Of a stretch of 64,000 bases of DNA, positions 41,554 to 61,845 are shown piece by piece; the first letter of the stretch is position 1, and each line of letters opens with the position of its first letter. The translations under genes were made by a program, and so were the position numbers. The notes below the pieces were generated by a model, which was given only the letters and a program-made list of their open reading frames with translations, had not been told where the DNA came from and did no database searches. The DNA lies in assembly GCA_964016885.1 (NCBI GenBank), contig OZ024741.1, positions 404,674,001 to 404,738,000 on the forward strand, given 5' to 3'. This stretch comes from Eledone cirrhosa. Its lineage: Eukaryota.

Positions 41554-41557
41554 AAAT

Positions 41558-41600
<43 letters not shown>

Positions 41601-41602
<2 letters not shown>

Positions 41603-42957
41603 ATGGTTTTTTGGTATGAAATCGTGTATTGAAACACGTGTTTATATAGTACCGAACCGTCTTTTTCTCCTTTTAGTTCCCCCCAGTGTTGGTCTATTCT
41701 TTCTCCTATGCTCCCAGCTGTCTCACCTATGTATGTCGTCGTCATGTTTCTGCAAGTACCCTCTGTACATCTTATGCTACAGGCTACATTTCTAGTTTTA
41801 CAGTTTATTTGTGGATTTATTCTACATATAACACATTTCTTATTAGTACAGTGGGTTTTCTTAAAGGGGTATGTCTTGCTGATCAGGGCTGTTATGGTAG
41901 TTCCTGGCTTTTCTACCACTTTAATCTTTAAATATGTCTTTCTTTGGGTCTTTCTACATTGGTTAGCTAATTTCCCCCCAGGGGTAACATCCACGAACAT
42001 GACACTCTGGTATCTCTGGTTGTCGTACCATGAAGCTGCTTTCCCTATCTTATGTTTCTATGTCCTATCTAAGCTATTCCATGATATGCTCCTGCACAAT
42101 GGACAAATCCCTTTCATTTCCATCACTATGACGGTCTTATATTTCTCCATGGCTCCTTTGTACACATTGATTCTGTCTCTTTGGTTGTAGCCAGAGAACT
42201 GCATGTGGTTGATGAAGTGTTGGATGTGTCTTTCCATTTCAATTGGGTCGCACATGTGGGACACGTTCTTCATCATTCTTACCAAGTCTGCGATCAAATT
42301 ATCAAACTTAGCACTGTTGGACATCGCTTAGTTTTTATGTATCAGGTATTTGGAGGCCATGGGTTTAGCATAATGTGAGTGGAGAATTTGGATTTTCTCG
42401 TTTATAATGTTTAACCAGAGTTCCGTGTCTAATACAGGTAGTCTATTGTTAGGGTGTTTGGAAGGGAAGTCTATAGTTACAGTTATACTCTGGTGTATGG
42501 AATTAGCTATCTGCTGGATACTCTCCATTGTGTTATTTTCTAATTCGGGTTTATTGTTACTCTCTTGTAGGGGTGTTTTTATTACTATATTGATATCGTC
42601 TGTGTAACGAGATTACATGACAAGGGCTATGGAGTTCTCCTCCAGGTGTTATCTGAGTCTCCTTTACCACCACACCATAAATATGTTGGCAACATCACCA
42701 GCTATTCTGACGTCAATGGCTGCTCCCTCATTCTGGGTGTAAATTTTCTTATTAAATTTAAACATGTGGCCCTTTGGGGTAGTTTTAGCTCCTACTGCAT
42801 GTACGATCATTTTTCTCACCTGATGGTTGTTTTGGGGTGTCCGTATGGCTTTGAACCATCCATTCCATCTTCCTATGGGAGTTTTTTTAGCCATGGAAGT
42901 TATGGTGTGTGGGGGGGGGGGTCTACCCCTTATTGGCCTACTGGGGTAGAAACTGCT
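41601..42957 (-). pseudogene. Degenerate Penelope-like retroelement ORF (RT, Cys-rich linker, GIY-YIG endonuclease), Neptune-like
   Basis: FKFNKKIYTQNEGAAI..IAGDVANIFM; RYTDDI at ~42592-42609; LPVLD, HYAKP, QFSGY; CTNKKCVIC...C linker; VACSIRC...YIGETAGSIGERIDQH; broken by stops and frameshifts. Confidence 0.88.
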
Positions 42958-42972
42958 ATAGATAGATAGATA

Positions 42973-45900
42973 ACTTTCTTTTATTTGCCACCAGGGCATC
43001 AAAGAGTGGGACAAGTACAATGGGGGAAGTTTACATAAAAAGGCGTCCTCCAATAAGGAGGAGGCAATAACAAAATATAAAAATATAAAATATAAAATAT
43101 AACAAAAATAAATTTAATAACAAAATCCTCAATAGGGAGGAGGCGCCTTGGGGGGTTCACACAACCCTGAAAAAAGTGTGCAACCCTTCTCCTCAGGAGC
43201 AGAGAGAGACAGTGCTCCCTTAATCTTTCATCTTCCTCACCTACAGTCTGATGTAGAGTGAAGGCCCATTCACACGGGCCATTCTCGCCACTTTCACCCA
43301 TCTTTCATAAAAACGGCTGGGGTGCAGCACCTCTCTCTCCATCCTGAGCCTTCTTCCCAAATGATATCGGAAGAAACGGACCAGTTGTTGGCCAGAGAGA
43401 AAGGTGTCTGACCTCAGTCCTTTCAGACGCGTCCACCATACAACCTCTTTCGCCATGGCTATTACGCACAGAAACACCGCCTCTCCTTCGTTTTTGAAGA
43501 GGGGAGGCGGCTTGATCGTTACGATAGACTCGGTGGTCAACCGGATCGGTCCCACCCGTGACAGCAGTTGTTCGACATAGCCCCACAGATCGGCAATGCC
43601 CGAGCAGTGTACCAATGCGTGTGCAACGGTTTCCTCGTCGCACACGCATCTTGGACAAATCCATTTCGAGGGGTCCCTACCCGGGCGCCCGTGTCTGTAG
43701 AGCCTTTCTCAAACAGGCAGAACCCCTCGGTAGCACTGCAAGGCCAGGGACTTCTGGAAGTTACCCATAGGTCCCGGGCTGAATGTCCTACCGAACAGGT
43801 TGGCCAGTTCGTTTTCCTCCATGCCTAGGGCTTCTTCTCGGTGTGCCAGGCGCCCAGTTTTCTCGGTCTTTGCTTGACCCAGGATTGCGGCTCGGTGAGC
43901 GAGAGGAGTCTAGGAAAGGCTCGCCTCACAAACGGGGCCCACACCGGTTGACCGGTGAGGAATACCTGGAGGTGCCGTAGCCTTAATGCGTGTTTACGCA
44001 TCATCAGCCACGGCATCCCCAGCCCTCCTTTCGAAGGATGTTGACAGCAGATGGATCTCCTCACCATAGGAGCCCGCTTCTTCCAAAGGAATTGGAAGAG
44101 TGCGCGCTCCATTTTGGCGAGCATTTCCCTTGGGCAAGGCACGACGGTCAGGCGGTAGTAGATGACGGACGCTATATAAGTGTTCGCCACCTCCGCCCAA
44201 CCTTTCAGGGACAGTTTCCACTCGGCCCACTTCTGGGTCAGTGCAAACACCCTGTTCGTTACCTCACTCCAGTTCTTCTCCACCTGGAGGTCTGGTCCGA
44301 ACCAGACCCCGAGCAACTTCACCGGGCCCTCCGTCCAGCGCCCGACGACGCCATCGGAGGGCATCGATTTGCCCCTCCACGTGCCGAGTTGCAAACCGAT
44401 CCACTTGTCCCGGTTCAGCTTAGTCCCTGTAAACCTTTCGAACTCCTCCAGTAAGGTGCCGATCGCTCCGATTTCCGAGGCCGTCGACACCGTTACTGTT
44501 ACGTCCTCGGCGTAGGCCGACACCGCTTTCCGCAATCCCGGTTCCAACGGGATGCCCTGCAACAACTCCAACTTCCACAGCAGTGGCTCTAGAGTCATTA
44601 CATACAGAAGGGAGGAGAGAGGGCACCCTTGTCGGATGGAACGCGTGATTTCGAAAGGCTCCGAGAGGTAGCCGTTCACCTTGACCCTAGAGCAGATGCG
44701 GCTGCCGTGCATGGCAGTGATCCAGCCCCTGAAAACGGGTCCGAAGCCTGCTGCCGCTACCACCGCATCCAGGTAACCATGGTCGACCCTATCGAACGCC
44801 TTAGATTGAACCAAGTTGATCAGGGCCCCACCAAAGCCGGGTTCATTCCCAAACCTCTCGATGATGTATCGCATGAGGTGGAGGTTGTCGTGGATGGACC
44901 TAGACGGGATAGCACATGTCTGTGCATCTCCCACCAGGTTTCGCACAACAAGTGCCAACCTCTTTAGCAGAGTTATGGGCCTGAAATTACTTATATTGTC
45001 CCCCTTATTCTAGTCCTTCCTCACTAGCGTGACTACGCCCTTGGTCACAGCACAGAGAATTCTCCCGTTCTGTTGCCAGTTGCAGTAGACCGCCTCGAGG
45101 AGATCAGGGAACAAGTCCGGCATAGCTAGATATAGTTCGTATGGAAGACCATCGAGACGCGGGGATTTGCGTTTGCCGCATTGGCTCAGCACGTTCTCTA
45201 TCTCAGCAGCTGAAATCGGCTCCTCGCAGGATTTCGCCTCCTTATCCGAGAGACGCGGCAGGCCGTCGAGGTATGGACCGAAGTCCACATCCCCAACCGG
45301 CTCCCCGCCCCTTCCGAACAATCTGGCAAAGTGCTTTTGAAAAGCCTCGCACATCTGCTTAGGTTCAAGGATCACCCGTCCATCCTGGTCTCGCAAAGAC
45401 CGGATAGTGGATCTACTCCCTCTTTTGGCTTCTGTCACGCGGGCCCAGCTAACAGCTTTGGTCCCCTCGTTTGCCAGAGCACGTATTTTGCTTCGGACGA
45501 TGCAGCCTTCGTGTTTCGCGTCGAAGAACTGGCCCAGGGCCGTTCTCGACGCTAGCACTCTGGCCACGTCGCCGCTTCTAATTGCCTCTTCTACACTATC
45601 TACCAACTCCCTTTCCTTCCTATTTCTATTTGAGGCTAACACCTTACTAAATTCTATAGAGACTACACTAATCTCTCTTTTGAGAGATCCCCACCACCTG
45701 CTGTTGACGATGGCACCCGTCAACCGCTCCTTAACTAAAGTGCCAATCAGGTCCCTGTAAGCTTTACTTGCTGGTAAGGACAAGTTGAGCTTCCAGTAAC
45801 CGGGTCCCTGTCCATGCGTTCTGTCAAGGTTGACCATGCAGGTCACTAACTTGTGGTCTGAATAGCCAACCATAAGCATTTCTGGACAACTTAAAAAGTC

Positions 45901-47070
45901 CTTATCCTTATTTCTAACTAAGAACCTATCTAGGTACGACCTAGATGATCCGCTATAGTTTGCCCAAGTCCAGGTTGGCGCAGTCGGAAAATCTAGTCGA
46001 TATCTATCGGCCAGGTCAAATCGGCCGATTAACTCTTTGAGGCTGTTACACCCCTCTCTATCGGGACAGGCCCCTACGTAGTCCCAACGTGCATCTAGGA
46101 TACCATTCCAGTCCCCCACTAATAGCAAGGAGCGGGACGATTGAAGAACTCCGGCCGCGTTGACCCGAAAGGGCCGTAGACGGCTACCAGCCTAAACGCT
46201 CCGCCTTCACCACTGCCAAGGTCCAGTACCACTAGTCGACCCTCCGGGTCCAAATGTACCGTCTGCGTGGCGAGACCCAGTTGTTTTTGCAGCAGAACGA
46301 CAATCCCACCCCCACCTCAGGGCTGACAGAGCGATGTGTGCATCTCAAAGTAATCAAAGGTGGGGGCCAGCTGTCGCACGTGCTGATCTGGGCCTCGCAA
46401 ATAACCATCACATCTATACATTGTGACCTGAGGTCATTTAGAAGCATTTAGACAACCTAGTCTCAGCATAGCCATGTTGGTGGTGAAGAGAAAAGGCACT
46501 TACCTCTCTGCTCCCGGGTATCGGGCTGCACAATTTCCATGAGGGTGGGGATGGGTTGCTGGGTGGGTGGTGGTTTGTGGGAGTGTAGGGGCATCAGTGT
46601 GTTGTGTGGTTGGGGTGTTTGGAGTTGTATGGGTGTTTGAGGAGGGGGTGAGGAATTTTTCAGGAGAACGCGGTTAATGGGCCCGACGCAGGGGGGGGGG
46701 CATCTCCACTTTAAAGTTGTTTTTAAGCGTTTTATGTGTCTCTGGAGCCTTAATCATTTTGAGGTGGGGCAAATCCCCTGCCTGGGTGAAGTTAGGCCCT
46801 TGGGTTTTCACTAAATTGTTGTTGTATACAATGTTTAGCAGTTTTTTATTTCTTGTGTTTATGTATGTGTATGCATGTTTTTGTTTTTGTGTGGTGTTTT
46901 TTGTTTGCTGTTGTTGTGAGCTCTTTTGTGTTGGTGTCAGTGTTATGTTTTGGGGAGGGGTTGTTTTCATTTGTGTGTCTGAGGTGTGTTTTCTTTTTTT
47001 TCTTTTGGTTGTGTGGAAGTGCTCCTCCTCGTCTGACGACGAACTAGGGTCATCTTCCGCGTTGGAGGGG
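42973..47070 (-). mobile_element. Tx1/L1-clade LINE copy A, 5'-truncated in ORF1, with disrupted ORF2
   Basis: APE motifs (VGDWN, SYLDRFLV, SDHKLV, GPGYWKLN) and RT motifs (SKAFDRVDH, RQGCPLS, YAED); several frameshifts and deletions; 3' UTR with AATAAA followed by (TATC)n. Confidence 0.93.
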
Positions 47071-47092
47071 AGATAGATAGATAGATAGATAA

Positions 47093-47139
<47 letters not shown>

Positions 47140-47140
47140 T

Positions 47141-47221
<81 letters not shown>

Positions 47222-47235
47222 TAGATAGATAGATA
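47071..47235. repeat. (GATA)n/(GACA)n compound microsatellite between the two LINEs
   Basis: Direct inspection. Confidence 0.97.
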
Positions 47236-47498
47236 TGTTTCTTTTATTTGCCACCAGGGCATCAAAAGTGGGACAAGTACAATGGGGGGAGTTTACAAAA
47301 TAAGGCGTCCTCAATAAGGAGGATGCAATAACAATATATAAAAATAAAATAAAATATAACAAAAAATAGAATTATAACAAAATCCTCAATAGAGAGGAGG
47401 CGCCTTGGGGGGTCGCACACACCCCCGAAAAAAGTGTGCAACCCTTTTCCTCAGGAGCACAGAGAGGGGGTGCTCCCTCGTTCCTTCCTCTTCTCCAC

Positions 47499-50400
47499 CT
47501 ACAGGCTTATGTAAAGAGAAGGCCCATTCACACGGGCCATTCTCGCCACTTTCACCCACCTTTCATAAAAACGACTGGGGTGGAGCACCTCTCTCTCCAT
47601 CCTGATCCTTCTTCCGAAATGATATCGGAAGAAACGGACCAGTTGTTGGCTAGAGAGAAAGGTGCCTGACCTCAGTCCTTTCAGACGCGTCCACCATACA
47701 ACTTCTTTCACCATGGCTATTACGCACAGAAACACCGCCTCTCCTTCATCTTTGAAGGGAGAAGGCGGCTTGATTATTACAATAGACTCGGTGGTCAACC
47801 GGATCGGTCCCACCCTTGACAGCAGTTGTTCGACATAGCCCCACAGATCGGCTACGCCCGAGCAGTGTACCAATGCGTGTGCAACGGTTTCCTCGTCGCA
47901 CACGCATCTGGGACAGATCTTTTTGGCGGGGTCCCTACCCGGGCGCCCGTGTCTGTAGAGCTTTTCTCGAACGGGTAGAGCCCCTCGGTAGCACTGCCAG
48001 GCCAGGGACTTCTGGAAGTTGTCTATAGGTCCTGGGCTGAATGTCCTACCGAACAGGCTGGCCAGTTCGTCCTCCTCCATGTCTAGGGCTTCTCCGAGGG
48101 CGTCGTCGCACCTGCTGCGTACCAGCCCTCTATAGAATGTTGCGGTGGAGTCTCCACTGATAACCGGATCCGCCTGCCAGAGGGCGGTGAGCGCCTGGGC
48201 ACACTCAGTGTGCCAGGCGCCCAGTTTTCTCGGTCTTTGCTTGACCCAGGATTGCAGCTCGGTGAGTGAGACGAGTCTAGGAAAGGTTCGTCTCACAAAC
48301 GAGGCCCACACCGGTTGACCGGTGAGAAATACGTAGAGGTGCCGTAGCCTTAATGCGTGTTTACGCATCATTAGCCACGGCATCCCCAGCCCTCCTTTCG
48401 AAGGGTGTTGACAGCAGATGGATCTCTTCACCATAGGAGCCCGCCTCTTCCAAAGGAATTGGAAGAGCGCGCGCTCCATCTTGGTGAGGGTTTCCCTTGG
48501 GCGGGGCACTACGGTCAGGCGGTAGTAGATGACGGACGCTATATAGGTGTTCGCCACCTCCGCCCGACCTTTCAGGGATAGTTTGCAACTGGCCCACTTC
48601 TGGGTCAGTGCAAACACCCTGTTCGTAACCTCCGCCCAGTTTTTCTCCACCTGGAGCTCCGGTCCGAACCAGACCCCGAGCAACTTCACCGGGCCCTCCG
48701 CCCAGCGTCCGACGACGCCATCGGAGGGCATCGGTCTGCCTCTCCACGTGCCGAGTTGCAAACCGATCGACTTGTCCCGGTTCAGCTTAGCCCCTGTGAA
48801 CCTTTCGTACTCCTCCAGTAAGGTGACGACCGCCTCGATTTCGGAAGCCGTCGACACCATTACTGTCACGTCAGCGGCGTAGGCCGACACCGCTTTCCGC
48901 AATCCCGGTTCCAAAGGGATGCCCTGCAACAACTACAACTTCCGCAGTAGTGGCTCGAGAGTCAACACATACAGAAGGGAGGAGAGAGGGCACGCTTGTC
49001 GGATGGACCGCGCGATTTTGAACGGCTCCGAGTGGTAGCCGTTCACCTTGACCCTAGAGCAGATGCGGCTGCTGTGCATAGCAGTGATCCAGCCCCTGAA
49101 AACGGGTCCGAAGCCTGCCGCCGCTAGTACCGCATCCAGGTAACCATGGTCGACCCTATCGAACGCCTTAGATTGATCCAAGTTGATCAGAGCCCCACCA
49201 AAGCCGGGTTCGTTCCCAACCCTCTCTATGATGTATCGCATGAGGTGGAGGTTGTCATGGATGGACCTGGACGGGATAGCGCATGTCTGCGCATCTCCCA
49301 CCAGGTTGCCCACGACAAGCGCCAACCTCTTTGCTAGCACCTTGGTCAAAATCTGTAACTCTGTATTTAGCAGAGTTATGGGCCTGAAGTTACTTATTTC
49401 GTCCCCCTTGTTCTCGTCCTTCCTCACTAGCGTGACTACGCCCTTGGTCACAGTACAGGGAATTCTCCCGTTCTGTTGCCAGTTGCAGTAGACCGCCTCG
49501 AGGAGATCGGGGAACAAGTCCGGCATAGCTAGATATAATTCATAAGGAAGACCATCGAGACCCGGGGATTTGCGTTTGCCGCATTGGCTCAGCACGTCCT
49601 CTATCTCAGCGGCCGAAATCGCCTGTTCGCAGGACTTCCCCTCCCTGTCCGAGAGACGCGGCAGGCCGTCGAGGTATGGACCGAAGTCCATGTTCCCAAC
49701 CGGCTCCCCGCTCCTCCCGAACAGTCGGGCAAAGTGCCTTTGAAAGGCCTCACACATCTGCTTAGGTTCAAGAATCGCCCGTCCATCCAGGTCTCGCAAA
49801 GACCGGATGGTGGATTTAGTTCCACTGTTGGCCTCTGTCACGCGGGCCCAGCTAACAGCTTTGGTCCCCTCGTTCCCTAGAGCACGTATTTTACTTCGGA
49901 TAACGCAGCCTTCGTGCTTCGCGTCGAAAAACTGGCTCAAAGCCGTTCTCGACGCTAGCACTCTGGCCACGTCGCCGCTTCTAATTGCCTCTATTACTCT
50001 ATCTATTAGCTCCCTTTCCTTCCTATTCCTATCCGCAGCTAGAACCTTACTAAATTCTATCGAGACTACTCTAATCTCTATCTTTAGAGATACCCACCAC
50101 CTGCTGTTGACGATCGCTCCAGTCAACCGTTCCTTAACTAACGTACTAATCCGATCCCTGTAAGCTCTACTTGCCGGCAAGGACAAGTTGAGCTTCCAGT
50201 AACCGGGGCCCTGTCTATGCGTTCTATCAAGGTTGACCATGCAGGTCACCAACTTGTTGTCTGAATAGCCAACCATGAGCATTTCTGGACAACTTAAAAT
50301 GTCCCCGTCCTTATTTCTAACTAAAAATCTATCTAGGTATGACCTAGATTTGACCAAGACCAGGTTGGCACCGTCGGAAAATCTAGTCGAAATCTATCGG

Positions 50401-50923
50401 CCAGGTCAAATCGGCCGAGTAACCCCTTGAGGCTGTTGCACCCCTCTCTATCGGGACATGACCCTGCATAGTCCCAACGTGCATCCAGGATACCATTCCA
50501 ATCCCCCACTAAAAGCAAGGAACGGGACGTCCCTAGAAAAGACTCCAGACGCTGGAAAAAGTCGGGCCGCTCTGTCCCAAAAGGAGCATATGCGGCTACC
50601 AGCCTAAAAGCTCTGCCTTCACCACTGCCAAGGTCCAGCACCACCAGTCGACCCCCTGGGTCCAAGTGAACTATCTGTGTTGCAAGGCCCAGATGTTTTT
50701 GCAGCAGAACGACAACCCCACCCCCACCTCCGGGCTGACAGAGAGATGCGTGCATCTCAAAGTCGTCAAAGGTGGGGGCTAGCTGTCGCATGCTGCTGAT
50801 CCGGGCCTCGCAGATAACCATCACATTTATAGATTGTGACCTGAGGTCATTTAGAAGCATTGCTTGCTTCCAAGACGAGCCCAGGCCACGCGCATTTAGA
50901 CACCCTACTCTTAGCACAGCCAT
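47499..50923 (-). pseudogene. LINE ORF2 (APE endonuclease and reverse transcriptase) with one frameshift near 50350, one in-frame stop at 48933-48935 and catalytic YADD changed to YAAD
   Basis: ORF track 50333-50947, 48933-50357 and 47499-48932; MAVLRVGCLNARGL start; KSPGLDGLPYELY, NFRPITLLN, DQSKAFDRVDH, CPRC...ETVAHALVHC. Confidence 0.92.
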
Positions 50924-50948
50924 GTTGGTGGAAAGGAGAAAAGGCACT

Positions 50949-51624
50949 TACCTCTCTGCGTCCCGGGAAACGGGCCGCTCAATTTCCATGTTGGTTGGGG
51001 ATGGGTTGTTGGGTGGGGTGGTGGTTTGTGGAAGTGAAGGGGCATCGGTGTGTTGTGGGGTTGGGGTGTTTGTGGTTGAGTGGGTGTCGGGGGGGGGTGT
51101 GAAATGTTTTAGGAGGACGCGGTTGATTGGTTTGGCGCAGGGGGGGGGGGGGGGGGGTCCACGTCCTCCGTGAAATTTATTTTCAGTGTTTTGTACAAGT
51201 GCATTGGGACTTTTATCATTTTTAAATGAGGTAGTCCCACAGCAGTTTTAAAGTTAGGCCCTTCAGTTTGGACCGAAGGGTTTGCTGAAATTGATTTCCG
51301 TAATTCTTTGTTGTCTGTGTTCATGTATGTATATTGTAAGGTCTTTTTTTGTGTAGCAGTTAGTGTTGTGTGACAGGGAGGGGTGGTTTGTGTGTAGTTT
51401 GTGTTCTCTTGGGGGGGGGGGGGGTTAAAGTTAACATGTGTGTCTGTGGTGCGTCTCCTCTTCTTTCTTTTTACTTGTTGGAAGGGATCTTTTTCGTCGT
51501 GCGACGAAAGGGGTTCGTCTTCCTTGTTGGGTGGGAGGGGTATGTTTTCTGGTAGTGTTTGCGGTGTGTGTGTTTTTGTATTTGTTTTGGGTGGGACAGT
51601 ATTCTGTGTTATTTGTTCACGTGT

Positions 51625-51655
<31 letters not shown>

Positions 51656-52622
51656 GGTGGTGGTGGTGGTGGTGGTGGTGGTGGTGGGGTTGTTGGTTTT
51701 TGTTGTTGTTGTTGTTGTGGTTGTTTTTGTTGTTGTTGTTAGGGTGGTGTTGGTGTTGGTAGCAGTGTTTTTTTCTGTGTGAGCTGGGGACAGGCAGCCC
51801 TCAGGTGACCTCTATTGCCACAGAGGTAACAGGAGGGACGCCTACCCTCCACAATAATGTTGAGGTGGGTACGGTCATCCAGCATGACGCGCTCAGGGAT
51901 TTGGGCGATGCGTTCTGGCCTTATTTGGGTCATAACTTCGATGCTCGTTCCACTGAACGCGTCGCCGGATGCCTTCCCTATTGAAATGAGGTTGTCCCCG
52001 TCTAAATTGAGGAAACCGGTTAATAACCACCAGTAGTTTATGTTTGGGGTGATGGTGGTTATCCATATCCTCTGGGTTTTTTTACCCATGTAGGTGGGGA
52101 AGAAGGTGTAGTGTGTGGACCGAATTGGCGACACAGAATATTTTTTCGCTGCCAATTCGTCTTTCATCAATATGGATAAACTCCCATAGAGTTTATCCTT
52201 TTGTATAAAAGTGATGTCTCTCATCGCTTCTTTCAATACTAACAGAATTTCAGCTTGAGATGGTTGTGCTGGTTTTTTTGTTTTATTTAAAATTGTTCGG
52301 AATACGACAGTTCGTAATTCCGTCTGTTTTTTTAGTTCTGGAGGTGAATGTATAGAAAACGAACCGTTTTCGCCAAAAGATACATATTTCTTGTCTTTTT
52401 CCAGCATTTCTTTTGCTTTTGAAATGTCTTCCAGCACATACGCGACTGATAATTTAGCCGTTTGTGCAAAAGATATTTTGTTTTCGCTTTGGATTTTAGT
52501 ATTGTTTTGTTTCTCGTCGTTTGAGTTGTTTTCATCTTTGTTGTTGTTGTTGTCTTTCTCGTTTGGTGTGTGGATACTTGTGACGTTTGTGTTGTTGTTG
52601 TTTTTGTTGTCTTTATTGTTGC

Positions 52623-52653
<31 letters not shown>

Positions 52654-52664
52654 TTCAAATTCTT
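50949..52664 (-). pseudogene. LINE ORF1 (gag-like nucleic-acid-binding protein), frameshifted in its low-complexity C-terminal part
   Basis: ORF 51739-52731 contains SFAQ and VEGRRPSCYLCGNRGHLRAAC (CX2CX4HX4C); its annotated N-terminus is microsatellite read-through; terminal ...MEIERPVSRDAER* lies just upstream of ORF2. Confidence 0.8.

Positions 52665-52704
<40 letters not shown>
52665..52704. repeat. (GATA)10 at the 5' junction of LINE B
   Basis: Direct inspection. Confidence 0.97.
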
Positions 52705-52736
52705 TACGTGCATGTATGTATTTGTATGCATATATA

Positions 52737-52897
52737 CCAGAGAACTCGATACTTTGGGTAGTAAAGTGGGTAATAGGAAACTAGTCAGAACCCGACGGCA
52801 GAGTCAAGCCGTTCCGACAGCTATTTCTGGATTCAGAGTCCAGAAATAGCTGTCGAAATGACTTGAGCTCTGCCGTCGGGGTTCTGACTCTTTTCCT
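52737..52897. mobile_element. Fold-back fragment of the 157-305 family with hammerhead-like motifs on both arms
   Basis: ~57-bp imperfect inverted arms 52775-52831 and 52839-52897; right arm tcc-AGAAATA-G-ctgt-C-GAAA-tgact-tgagctc-tgccg-TC-ggg. Confidence 0.6.
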
Positions 52898-56369: not shown

Positions 56370-56520
56370 GTCACCCCGCAACTCCTGTGGACAGAATAGA
56401 GAAGGTGTTTCCCAGGAGGATGGTGAGGAAGTCTTGTGGGAAGAGCAGCCATTCCATCTCGCGATGCACACACCTGCGGGTAGCCAGCTCCGTGTCGATG
56501 GTTGGGAGTTGAGTGATGGT
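56370..56520 (-). mobile_element. CRE-clade LINE 3' end, contiguous with the 68-bp minisatellite
   Basis: Translates GPRTITQLPTIDTELATRRCVHREMEWLL...TILLGNTFSILSTG, homologous to 6343-6485. Confidence 0.7.
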
Positions 56521-57650
56521 CCTAGGGCCAAAGACACCAGAAGTCTCCACTGCTACGAGGTGCTGATGGTGGTGTGTAGGGAGGTGGTCCTAGGTCAAAG
56601 GACACCAGAAGTCTCCACTGCTACAGGGTACTGATGGTGGTGTGTATGTGTAGGGAGGTGGTCCTAGGGCCAAGGACACCAGAAGTCTCCACTGCTACGT
56701 GGTACCGATGGTGGAGTGTAGGGAGGTGGTCCTAGTGTCCAAGGACACCAGAAGTCTCCACTGCTACGAGGTGCCGATGGTGGTGTGTAGGGAGGTGGTC
56801 CTAGGGCCAAGGACACCAGAGGTCTCCACTGCTACGAGGTGCCGATGGTGGAGTGTAGGGAGGTGGTCCTAGGGCCAAGGACACCAGAGGTCTCCACTGC
56901 TACGAGGTGCCGATGGTGGTGTGTAGGGAGGTGGTCCTAGGGCCAAGGACACCAGAGGTCTCCACTGCTACGAGGTGCCGATGGTGGAGTGTAGGGAGGT
57001 GGTCCTAGGGCCAAGGACACCAGAGGTCTCCACTGCTACGAGGTGCCGATGGTGGTGTGTATGGAGGTGGTTCTAGGGCCAAGGACACCAGAGGTCTCCA
57101 CTGCTACGAGGTGCCGATGGTGGTGTGCAGGGAGGTGGTCCTAGGGCCAAGGACACCAGAGGTCTCCACTGCTACGAGGTGCCGATGGTGGTGTGTAGGG
57201 AGGTGGTCCTAGGGCCAAGGACACCAGAGGTCTCCACTGCTACGAGGTGCCGATGGTGGTGTGTAGGGAGGTGGTCCTAGAGCCAAGGACACCAGAGGTC
57301 TCCACTGCTACGAGGTGCCGATGGTGGTGTGCAGGGAGGTGGTCCTAGGGCTAAGGACACCAGAAGTCTCCACTGCTACGAGGTGCTGATGGTGGTGTGT
57401 AGGGAGGTGGTTCTAGAGCTAAGGACACCAGAAGTCTTCACTGTTACAGGGTACTGATGGTGGTGTGTAGGGAGGTGGTTCTAGAGCCAAGGACACCAGA
57501 AGTCTTCACTGTTACAGGGTACTGATGGTGGTGTGTAGGGAGGTGGTCCTAGGGCCAAGGACACTAGAAGTCTCCACTGCTACAGGGTACTGATGGTAGT
57601 GTATAGGGAAGTGGTCCTAGGGCCAAGTACACCAGAACTCTCCACTGCTA
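56518..57650. repeat. 68-bp GC-rich minisatellite, ~17 copies, derived from CRE endonuclease coding sequence
   Basis: Period 68 (56798/56866); unit gtcctagggccaaggacaccagaggtctccactgctacgaggtgccgatggtggtgtgtagggaggtg; minus strand encodes LVAVETSGVLGPRT. Confidence 0.95.
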
Positions 57651-59712: not shown

Positions 59713-60157
59713 TTATATATATACATATATATAAGGATAAGGGTTATGTATACATATATATATACATATATATAAGATAAGGGTTTTATATATACATATA
59801 TATATATATATATGATAAGGGTTATATATACATATATATATACATATATATAAGATAAGGGTTATATATACATATATATATATACATAAACGGAAAAAAT
59901 GAAACGAAATTTCATTTCCCATTCTTAGTACGGCTGTTACTTAAATATAAGTATGTACACGTACATACATATATGTATACAGACGTACAGTAGTATGTAT
60001 ATATATATATATACATACATGCACACATATATATATGTACGTATGGATTCACCGAACATTTATTATAATGCTCGGTGTGTTTGCAAACAAACATCCCGTA
60101 TTAAGTCGTAGTGTCTAGCAACCATCGTTGCTCGTTTGTTCAACACTGACAAAGGAA

Positions 60158-60198
60158 CGCTGTACTAGTTTCAAGCTTATTAGCTATCGTCAACAACG
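60158..60198 (-). ncRNA. Type I hammerhead ribozyme, C3U copy
   Basis: Minus strand: cgttg-TTGACGA-t-agct-aata-agct-t-GAAA-ctag-TA-cagcg. Confidence 0.7.
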
Positions 60199-60579
60199 TA
60201 TACCTTCCTGCCAGATTGTTGAACGTATATACTTACCTTATGCATATTAACGGCTGAGTAGCCCAATTTGCATATCGAGTGGGTTAATCGGCCGGGTGCA
60301 CCGAAAATGATAAACGGAAAAAATGAAACGAAATTTCATTTCCCTCTCTTAGTACGGCTGTTACTTAAATATAAGTATGTACACGTACATACATATATGT
60401 ATACAGACGTACAATAGTATGTATATATGCATACATGCACACATATATATATATATATGTACGTATGGATGCACCGAACATTTATTATAATGCTCGGTGT
60501 GTTTGTAAACAAACATCCCGTATTAAGCCGTAGTGTCTAGCAACCATCGTTGCTCATTTCTTCAACACTGACAAAGGAA

Positions 60580-60620
60580 CGCTGTACTAGTTTCAAGCTT
60601 ATTAGCTATCGTCAGCAACG
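60580..60620 (-). ncRNA. Type I hammerhead ribozyme, canonical core
   Basis: Minus strand: cgttg-CTGACGA-t-agct-aata-agct-t-GAAA-ctag-TA-cagcg. Confidence 0.85.
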
Positions 60621-60846
60621 TATACTTTCCTGCTAGATTGTTGAACGTATATACTTACCTTATGCATATTAACGGCTGAGTAGCCCAATTTGCATATCGA
60701 GTGGGTTAATCGGCCGGGTGCACCGAAAACGATAAACGGAAAAAATGAAACGAAATTTCATGTACGTCTGTATACATATATGTATGTACGTGTACATACT
60801 TATATTTAAGTAACAGCCGTACTAGGAGTGGGAAATGAAAGGTATA

Positions 60847-60887
60847 CGTTGCTGACGATAGTTAATAGGCTTGAAACTAGTACAGCG
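60847..60887 (+). ncRNA. Type I hammerhead ribozyme, canonical core
   Basis: cgttg-CTGACGA-t-agtt-aata-ggct-t-GAAA-ctag-TA-cagcg; both stem II substitutions keep pairing as G-U. Confidence 0.83.
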
Positions 60888-61276
60888 CTCCTTTGTCAGT
60901 GTTGAATAAACCAGCAACGATGGTTGCTAGACACTACGGCTTAATACGGGATGTTTGTTTACAAACACACCGAGCATTATAATAAATGTTCGGTGAATCC
61001 ATACATACATATATATATATGTGTGCATGTATGTATATATATATATATATATACATACTACTGTACGTCTGTATACATATATGTATGTACGTGTACATAC
61101 TTATACTTAAGTAACAGCCGTACTAAGAGTGAGAAATGAAATTTCGTTTCATTTTTTCCGTTTATCGTTTTCGGTGCACCCGGCCGATTAACCCACTCGA
61201 TATGCAAATTGGGCTACTCGGCCGTTAATATGCATAAGGTAAGTATATACGTTCAACAATCTGGCAGGAAGGTATA

Positions 61277-61317
61277 CGTTGCTGACGATAGCTAATAAGC
61301 TTGAAACTAGTACAGCG
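61277..61317 (+). ncRNA. Type I hammerhead ribozyme, canonical core
   Basis: cgttg-CTGACGA-t-agct-aata-agct-t-GAAA-ctag-TA-cagcg. Confidence 0.85.
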
Positions 61318-61845
61318 TTCCTTTGTCAGTGTTGAACAAACGAGCAACGACGGTTGCTAGACACTACGGCTTAATACGGGATGTTTGTTTACAAACACAC
61401 CGAGCATTATAATAAATGTTCGGTGAATCCATAGGTACATATATATATGTGTGCATGTATGTATATTTATATACATACTACTGTACGTCTGTATACATAT
61501 ATGTATGTATGTGTACATACTTATATATATATATATACATATATATAAGATAACGGTTATATATACATATATATATATACATATAAATATACATAAACCC
61601 ATGGAGTAAATATTTATTATTAATACAGATTAAAAGGTTAAGCAAACAATTTCTGCTTTCACCCTAAGCGGAGTCATCTAAAAGTTTCAGGTGATCCCAC
61701 TTTCTTTTGTAGCCCTAGATTTCTTGTTTTTCCCCTCCTTTTCCTTTCATTTGTGGCATTTATAGTCCTTTCTTCTACTTTCCTATACAGCCAGATCTGC
61801 CCTTCTTTACCTCTTCCACTTTTTCTCAATAATAAATATATATAT

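Follow-up and report, generated by a model that had tools for sequence, protein, structure and literature searches.

The 64,000-nt stretch of Eledone cirrhosa DNA analysed here (hereafter the window) holds units of 422-430 nt arrayed head-to-head, with four type I hammerheads in all, and this array raises the question of what process lays down copies of one small non-coding unit in both orientations at a single site. Two matters open in the literature meet in this question: by what enzyme animal retrozymes are moved, and in what way Penelope-like elements (PLEs) make their tail and inverted repeats.

An initial annotation had read the locus as an inverted multimer with four hammerheads, two per strand, and unit alignment together with a hammerhead scan confirmed this reading (Table 1). 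The flip, short piece and skip that it had estimated at ~60760 and ~60840 (~130 bp) were placed at 60761, at 60761-60840 and at 129 nt, respectively. The tandem plus-strand units that it described form a genuine plus arm, ending at about 61524-61526, which holds just one full unit and two partial ones. Complete units at the locus measure 422 or 430 nt and are identical at 402 of 422 aligned letters. The insertion lies in a TA-rich 40-bp minisatellite, between 14 identical letters of low complexity on either side, and the flanks of other sampled loci are pure TA. Over the whole window, the hammerhead scan returned a single further candidate besides the four (5638, minus strand).

Table 1. Features of the hammerhead array, in window coordinates.
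Feature	Position	Strand	Remarks
Left copy of likely 14-bp target-site duplication	59872..59885		Within TA-rich 40-bp minisatellite; low complexity
Left arm	59886..60761	-	2.07 units; 3' end 59886 = site B (fixed), position 275 of the unit counted from the cut
Tail of 56 nt separating 3'-end sites A and B	59886..59941	-	At left outer end only
Hammerhead with C3U (60193)	60157..60199	-	Core start 60193; predicted impaired; cut site after 60163
Hammerhead with intact core	60579..60621	-	Core start 60615; predicted cut after 60585
Head-to-head (5'-5') junction	60761		Unit positions about 246 and 172; 1-nt overlap
Right arm	60761..61526	+	3' end = fixed site A, unit position about 219
129-nt skip	60839..60840	+	2-nt (AA) overlap; template jump or later deletion
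Hammerhead, two G-U stem II changes and broken outer stem I pair	60847..60887	+	Core start 60852; predicted cut after 60882
Hammerhead, commonest family form	61276..61318	+	Core start 61282; predicted cut after 61312
Right copy of likely target-site duplication	61525..61538		Same 14 letters as left of 59886

The array is no chance find: an exact search of the 3.0-Gb genome gave 10,188 matches to the 31-nt hammerhead core and none to the reversed control, and a young variant of the core adds 1,809 more. A sister family, ~72% alike and with units near 480-510 nt, has 12,021 exact cores, a pattern that also catches some variants of the 422-nt family; a third family, of 310 nt and with the same ribozyme build, has 8,702. 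Together the three families exceed 30,000 exact hammerhead cores. The 422-430-nt units are tandem and non-coding, with one hammerhead each and a GC content of 0.37-0.39, and they are dispersed in many copies without LTR or ORF, the flanks of different loci being unrelated. The repeat is thus a non-LTR retrozyme family, in line with the retrozyme option of the initial annotation, and a new one within a known class. Pieces of the unit also occur in two other organisms, whereas two contig sets presumed to derive from RNA gave no match, a result that speaks neither for nor against expression. At least five further hammerhead-bearing families were seen, and more small hammerhead elements lie in (TA)n at L150:6900-8000, L159:2830-3700 and L141:8900-9400, some of them head-to-head.

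Two samples were analysed, namely all 77 loci behind the first 100 matches listed for the core, with 3 long arrays added, and 40 stretches from the young-variant list. Both come from one chromosome arm and were selected for an intact core, so that core conservation is not measurable from them. We left out of the counts L097 (a duplicate of L096), one of two events at L224, and L242, L228 and L229, which had no ends in view or were old and satellite-like. Two arms were found at 31 of the 77 position-sampled loci, and nothing therefore singles out the window copy, which is one insertion among more than 10,000 exact cores: it is an aged, ordinary copy of a common repeat, not the unusual locus first supposed. 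Nor is the pLTR reading, also proposed, supported, no flanking RT gene having been seen at the window or at the sampled loci, whose two outer ends run into (TA)n.

The hammerhead has a 6-bp helix I, a 4-bp helix II above a U-U mismatch and a helix III made of a 6-nt palindrome, with the CUGANGA, GAAA and NUH motifs of type I. This build, which the initial annotation had called minimal, is that of the canonical, dimer-dependent hammerhead according to PMC4209133. The minimal hammerheads of PLEs described there share dimer dependence and palindromic positions around helix III, but combine a long helix II with a short helix I and a reduced helix III, a combination absent from the 422-nt family. 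The 41-nt motif first delineated is real, although in three of the four window copies stem I extends to 6 bp (43 nt), and another helix is predicted past an internal loop. In place of the G10.1-C11.1 pair, all four families seen in the genome have U-U, which is known at the base of helix II in the axolotl retrozyme HHR_Amex2 (PMC7229834).

We aligned seven sequences: all four copies from the window, plus a single representative of the young group, of the sister group and of the 310-nt group. Across the 13 pairs, 98.9% of cells were paired (21-44% in slid controls), and 8 of the 13 showed double changes, most of them contributed by the one sequence of the third family. Compensatory changes, which occur in all three stems, thus appear to give the ribozyme good but narrow backing. 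One stem I pair is seen as U-G, A-U and G-U, and the stem III palindrome passes from ACUAGU to ACGCGU, palindromic in both, as the dimer logic ascribed to it would predict. The palindromic helix III is too tight to close by itself, and cleavage as dimers is predicted. At the window, the C3U change and the two stem II changes that keep G-U pairs are both real, as annotated; the latter are private transitions of one aged unit and so prove little as a sign of selection. An Rfam scan of the window gave no match at the gathering score, and a hammerhead folded alone did no better than shuffles (z -0.55). In a predicted circular fold, monomers were 66-71% paired, with z of -8.8 for the young unit and -4.7 to -6.9 for window units (40 shuffles); antisense strands fold well too (z -4.8 to -6.8).

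We then come to the ends of the arms. Counted from the predicted cut, 3' ends fall at two sites 56 nt apart, A at about 216-219 and B at 275, both ending in UAU and both unpaired or in a loop in the predicted circular fold. Of 72 arms from the young loci, 54 had their ends exactly at these two positions, and (TA)n followed 58 of 59 exact A or B ends. Joins in 81 stretches were head-to-head in 37 cases and tail-to-tail in 1, which agrees with the Penelope-like arrangement proposed in the initial annotation. Tail-to-tail neighbours at L230 and L253 were rejected as joins, being separate small fragments. Once duplicates were removed, one A end was paired with one B end in 26 of 36 and 17 of 24 distinct pairs (43 in all); the remaining 17 pairs had at least one end elsewhere, and there was no A/A or B/B pair. 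An apparent A/A pair at L274 proved to be a nested insertion. Single arms use A and B equally (A 25, B 24, other 9), so that by chance half of the pairs should be same-site (2^-43 for 43 pairs). The same one-of-each rule holds for 10 of 11 pairs in the 310-nt family, where the tail is about 35 nt, and the sister family gave 9 A/B pairs, 3 pairs with one end unclassified and 1 nested. The window insertion, with B on the left and A on the right, fits this rule.

The 5' ends are scattered, and arm lengths range from 0.1 to 27 units. Only 4 of 200 5' ends fall 10 nt or less from the cut, where 9.5 would be expected, and 65 of 81 arms are longer than 275 nt, so that a linear monomer opened at the cut did not serve as template. 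Within a pair, the positions of the 5' ends bear no relation to each other (mean circular distance 105 of 211; KS p 0.85 against uniform), and they lie within 15 nt of each other at 3 of 36 junctions. Among 34 young junctions, 13 are clean, 12 of these with an overlap of at least 1 nt (null 44%), and 21 carry filler or mismatches, a weak signal. Head-to-head 5'-truncated copies, a tail at one end only and an AT-rich or microsatellite target are the features of PLE-type insertion, and the end pattern is the PLE 'tail' signature.

Both arms appear to record one template. At 25 of 26 loci, opposite arms were closer to each other than to copies elsewhere (mean rank 0.16), and a rare variant was common to both arms at 8 of the 26 loci, against 386 of 29,342 between-locus pairs (1.3%). 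Two private variants are present in 9/9 units of both arms at L227 and one in 9/9 units at L266; L264 has a 308-nt unit throughout both arms, and an arm at L261 is made of 27 near-identical units. At the window, the variants common to both arms are widespread family variants only. Other loci count against a pure circle model: a variant is confined to one arm at L221, two unit types alternate at L055:3227-5337 and L240:2091-4401 (dimer circles or later block duplication), L007 has a core-mutated hammerhead in both arms, and satellite-like turnover marks the array spanning L228-L229, an aged one of about 38 units with recurring unit types, apparently a retrozyme turning satellite. Similarity of the arms could also come from gene conversion between them. 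In a post hoc comparison, A>G changes made up 13 of 42 every-unit variants and 52 of 525 single-unit variants (Fisher p 3e-4, a few variants being counted twice and some polarities unsure), with A>G:T>C ratios of 13:4 and 52:54, respectively. Such an excess may fit A-to-I editing of the template.

The ends found in dozens of copies suggest a Penelope-type enzyme that copies one small RNA circle into both strands. The window array is probably an aged non-LTR retrozyme insertion in which a PLE RT-endonuclease nicked both strands of the TA tract and primed both ends on one RNA, itself probably circular. Tandem units would self-cleave as hammerhead dimers and be ligated into a 422-nt circle, as the structure, the covariation and the retrozymes of PMC7229834 suggest. 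On this template we infer a dimeric PLE enzyme that would begin its two cDNAs at different sites, one at A and one at B, priming each time at an exposed UAU, which matches 2-5 nt of the TA target. Both cDNAs would run round the template for variable lengths, without a stop at the cut site, and would presumably be linked head-to-head, in many cases through a short overlap or filler, after which the inserted copy would decay neutrally. This scheme accords with what is reported in PMC11167929 of a PLE protein, modelled as a dimer, that nicks AT-rich DNA and extends each of its strands; synthesis begins there at two sites inside the RNA, and the stretch that separates them is the tail found in the genome. 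More tentatively, and with real doubt on our part, a dimeric Penelope enzyme might have two active sites which, from two fixed starts, chase each other round one RNA circle, one per target strand; tail and head-to-head arms would then arise in one step, and A-to-I edits of circles would become fixed in the genome.

The same priming by a PLE enzyme could have used an uncleaved linear multimer from a uniform source array, with the hammerhead dispensable for insertion. The protein of PMC11167929 showed no start-site difference between strands, did not need target homology, and had uncleaved RNA as its main substrate, cleavage not being needed; because of these results an uncleaved multimer also fits. 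It would further account for the two-unit alternation at L055 and L240 and for the core-mutated hammerhead in both arms of L007, and in Xenopus no cleavage was seen for 8 of 9 dimers (bioRxiv 10.64898/2026.07.22.740005). However, the locus-private variants fixed in all units of both arms (L227, L266, L264) call for a monomer-to-multimer step after the mutation, and the 27 near-identical units in one arm of L261 and the compensatory conservation of the ribozyme between families also count against a linear multimer, which we consider unlikely. Fold-back self-priming on an antisense template, proposed for rotifer Penelope from junction palindromes (PMC3846280), would find its cases in the few junctions with neighbouring 5' ends, but the positions of the two 5' ends are otherwise independent, and the site-A arm is often the longer and hence no copy of the site-B arm. 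As a general route it is largely refuted, and as the source of the inverted arm in the window it is very improbable.

Hardly more credible is a history in which unequal crossing-over enlarged a solo pLTR, with partial inversion afterwards, or in which two copies landed independently, back to back, in a TA tract. Local expansion has been proposed in bioRxiv 10.64898/2026.07.22.740005 and does occur here (L228-229, and a 7-unit repeat of variants in L264), as do nested insertions into TA tracts (L274). A later inversion would nevertheless put a variable 5' end outside, whereas the ends that face outward are, on either side, fixed 3' ends; two separate landings predict same-site pairs (0 of 43) and unrelated arms; and arrays that are still young, on different chromosomes, are long and identical already. 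These processes are refuted as the origin of the two arms and valid as later modifiers. Finally, the arms of the window copy are 92-94% complementary over hundreds of bases, so that read-through would give a long dsRNA, and a hairpin used by the host or a source of endo-siRNA might be imagined; we give this very little credit, in view of the scattered private changes typical of decay, C3U included, and of the head-to-head form seen at so many sampled loci. Insertion by a PLE enzyme on a probably circular RNA remains the reading that we retain.

The genome does hold elements with RT plus a GIY-YIG nuclease at the C-terminus, one of which, with a Cys-rich linker before the nuclease, may be Neptune-like, going by the description in bioRxiv 10.1101/2021.04.23.441226. 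Its terminal repeat carries a hammerhead with U-U and palindromic helix III (5,772 exact matches). It also targets (TA)n, has two 3' ends, and shows one of each end in 8 of 10 head-to-head pairs, with no same-site pair. No common sequence was detectable between this element and the 422-nt unit. Other PLE families here also end in (TA)n. Among 10,597 GIY-YIG candidates, 150 were scored and 50 loci examined; at these 50 loci we found no PLE with homology to the unit, nor the unit as a terminal repeat, and no ORF with RT and GIY-YIG flanked by it. Partner candidates amounted to weak matches (E 0.14) or to insertions that lay nearby and were unrelated, and one hammerhead, situated 1.3 kb beyond the ORF at L159, was rejected as a separate insertion. 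The autonomous PLE with the 5,772 exact matches (G000:C1) has many head-to-head pairs with hammerheads exactly 113 nt apart, a preferred inversion point unlike the scattered junctions of the retrozymes.

Several known systems come close to the family. The metazoan non-LTR retrozymes of coral, mussel and axolotl (PMC7229834) share with it tandem 150-450-bp non-coding units with GC below 50%, a canonical type I hammerhead (with the U-U of HHR_Amex2), a well-folded circle and thousands of copies. Expression and circles have been shown for them, and circles are predicted for the 422-nt family; the main text of that paper, where the word 'inverted' has no match, does not mention head-to-head arms, two fixed 3' ends, a one-sided tail or (TA)n targeting. 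EN+ PLEs (Penelope/Poseidon, Neptune) share 5' truncation, an inverted 5'-truncated head-to-head copy, a tail at one end, two start sites, AT-rich or microsatellite targets and a hammerhead (PMC3846280, bioRxiv 10.1101/2021.04.23.441226, PMC11167929). In contrast to these PLEs as described there, the 422-nt family has no ORF, a tail of 56 instead of 30-40 nt, arms of many monomers and junctions that are mostly not palindromic. The one-sided tail is thus already known for PLEs and the retrozyme kind is known too; the new part is the architecture, with two fixed ends, one per arm. In L1 twin priming, both target strands prime and the result is head-to-head, as in the retrozyme arms, but the second primer acts at a variable site and yields two pieces without overlap; the retrozyme arms, by contrast, use two fixed sites and each run repeatedly over one and the same sequence.

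Retrozymes of vertebrates have been tied to PLEs by co-occurrence and pLTR similarity (bioRxiv 10.64898/2026.07.22.740005, the main text of which has no match for 'tail' or 'head-to-head'). The present link is of another kind, since retrozymes without an ORF bear, as a population, an unusually clear footprint of PLE insertion. Neither retrozyme arrays in head-to-head form nor a strict one-of-each rule nor the 422-nt family turned up in the literature within our scope, outside which lay most subscription papers, supplements and repeat databases. From the one-of-each rule follows a sharp prediction, within reach of an uncomplicated in vitro system in which a PLE protein meets an RNA of 310-420 nt and a (TA)n target. 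The 310-nt family (L059, L261-L269), very young, with arms of up to 27 near-identical units and the two-site rule kept, is the best candidate for bench work. As near-identical young arrays are present, the families are likely active or recently so.

Several other features were noted in the window. The further hammerhead candidate (about 5579-5643, minus strand) has a long helix II and a near-palindromic helix III, lies downstream of a CAA/CAG-rich tract and ends in (TA)n; nearer to the PLE minimal type of PMC4209133, it looks like a PLE-type terminal repeat, and it has no sequence link to the 422-nt unit, as the initial annotation had held. Fragments resembling by eye a PLE nuclease and RT lie at 41557-43113 (minus strand), a 166-aa piece of which had no Pfam match. 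At 43241-52803 (minus strand) there are two tandem broken LINE copies, which we take to be L1/Tx1-like, with endonuclease-like, RT-like and ORF1-like frames. A 29-kb satellite occupies 8031-37178 (35-bp unit, more than 800 copies, GC skew about -0.78), and a 68-bp GC-rich tandem repeat of 16.6 copies, with 93% matches, lies at 56517-57650.
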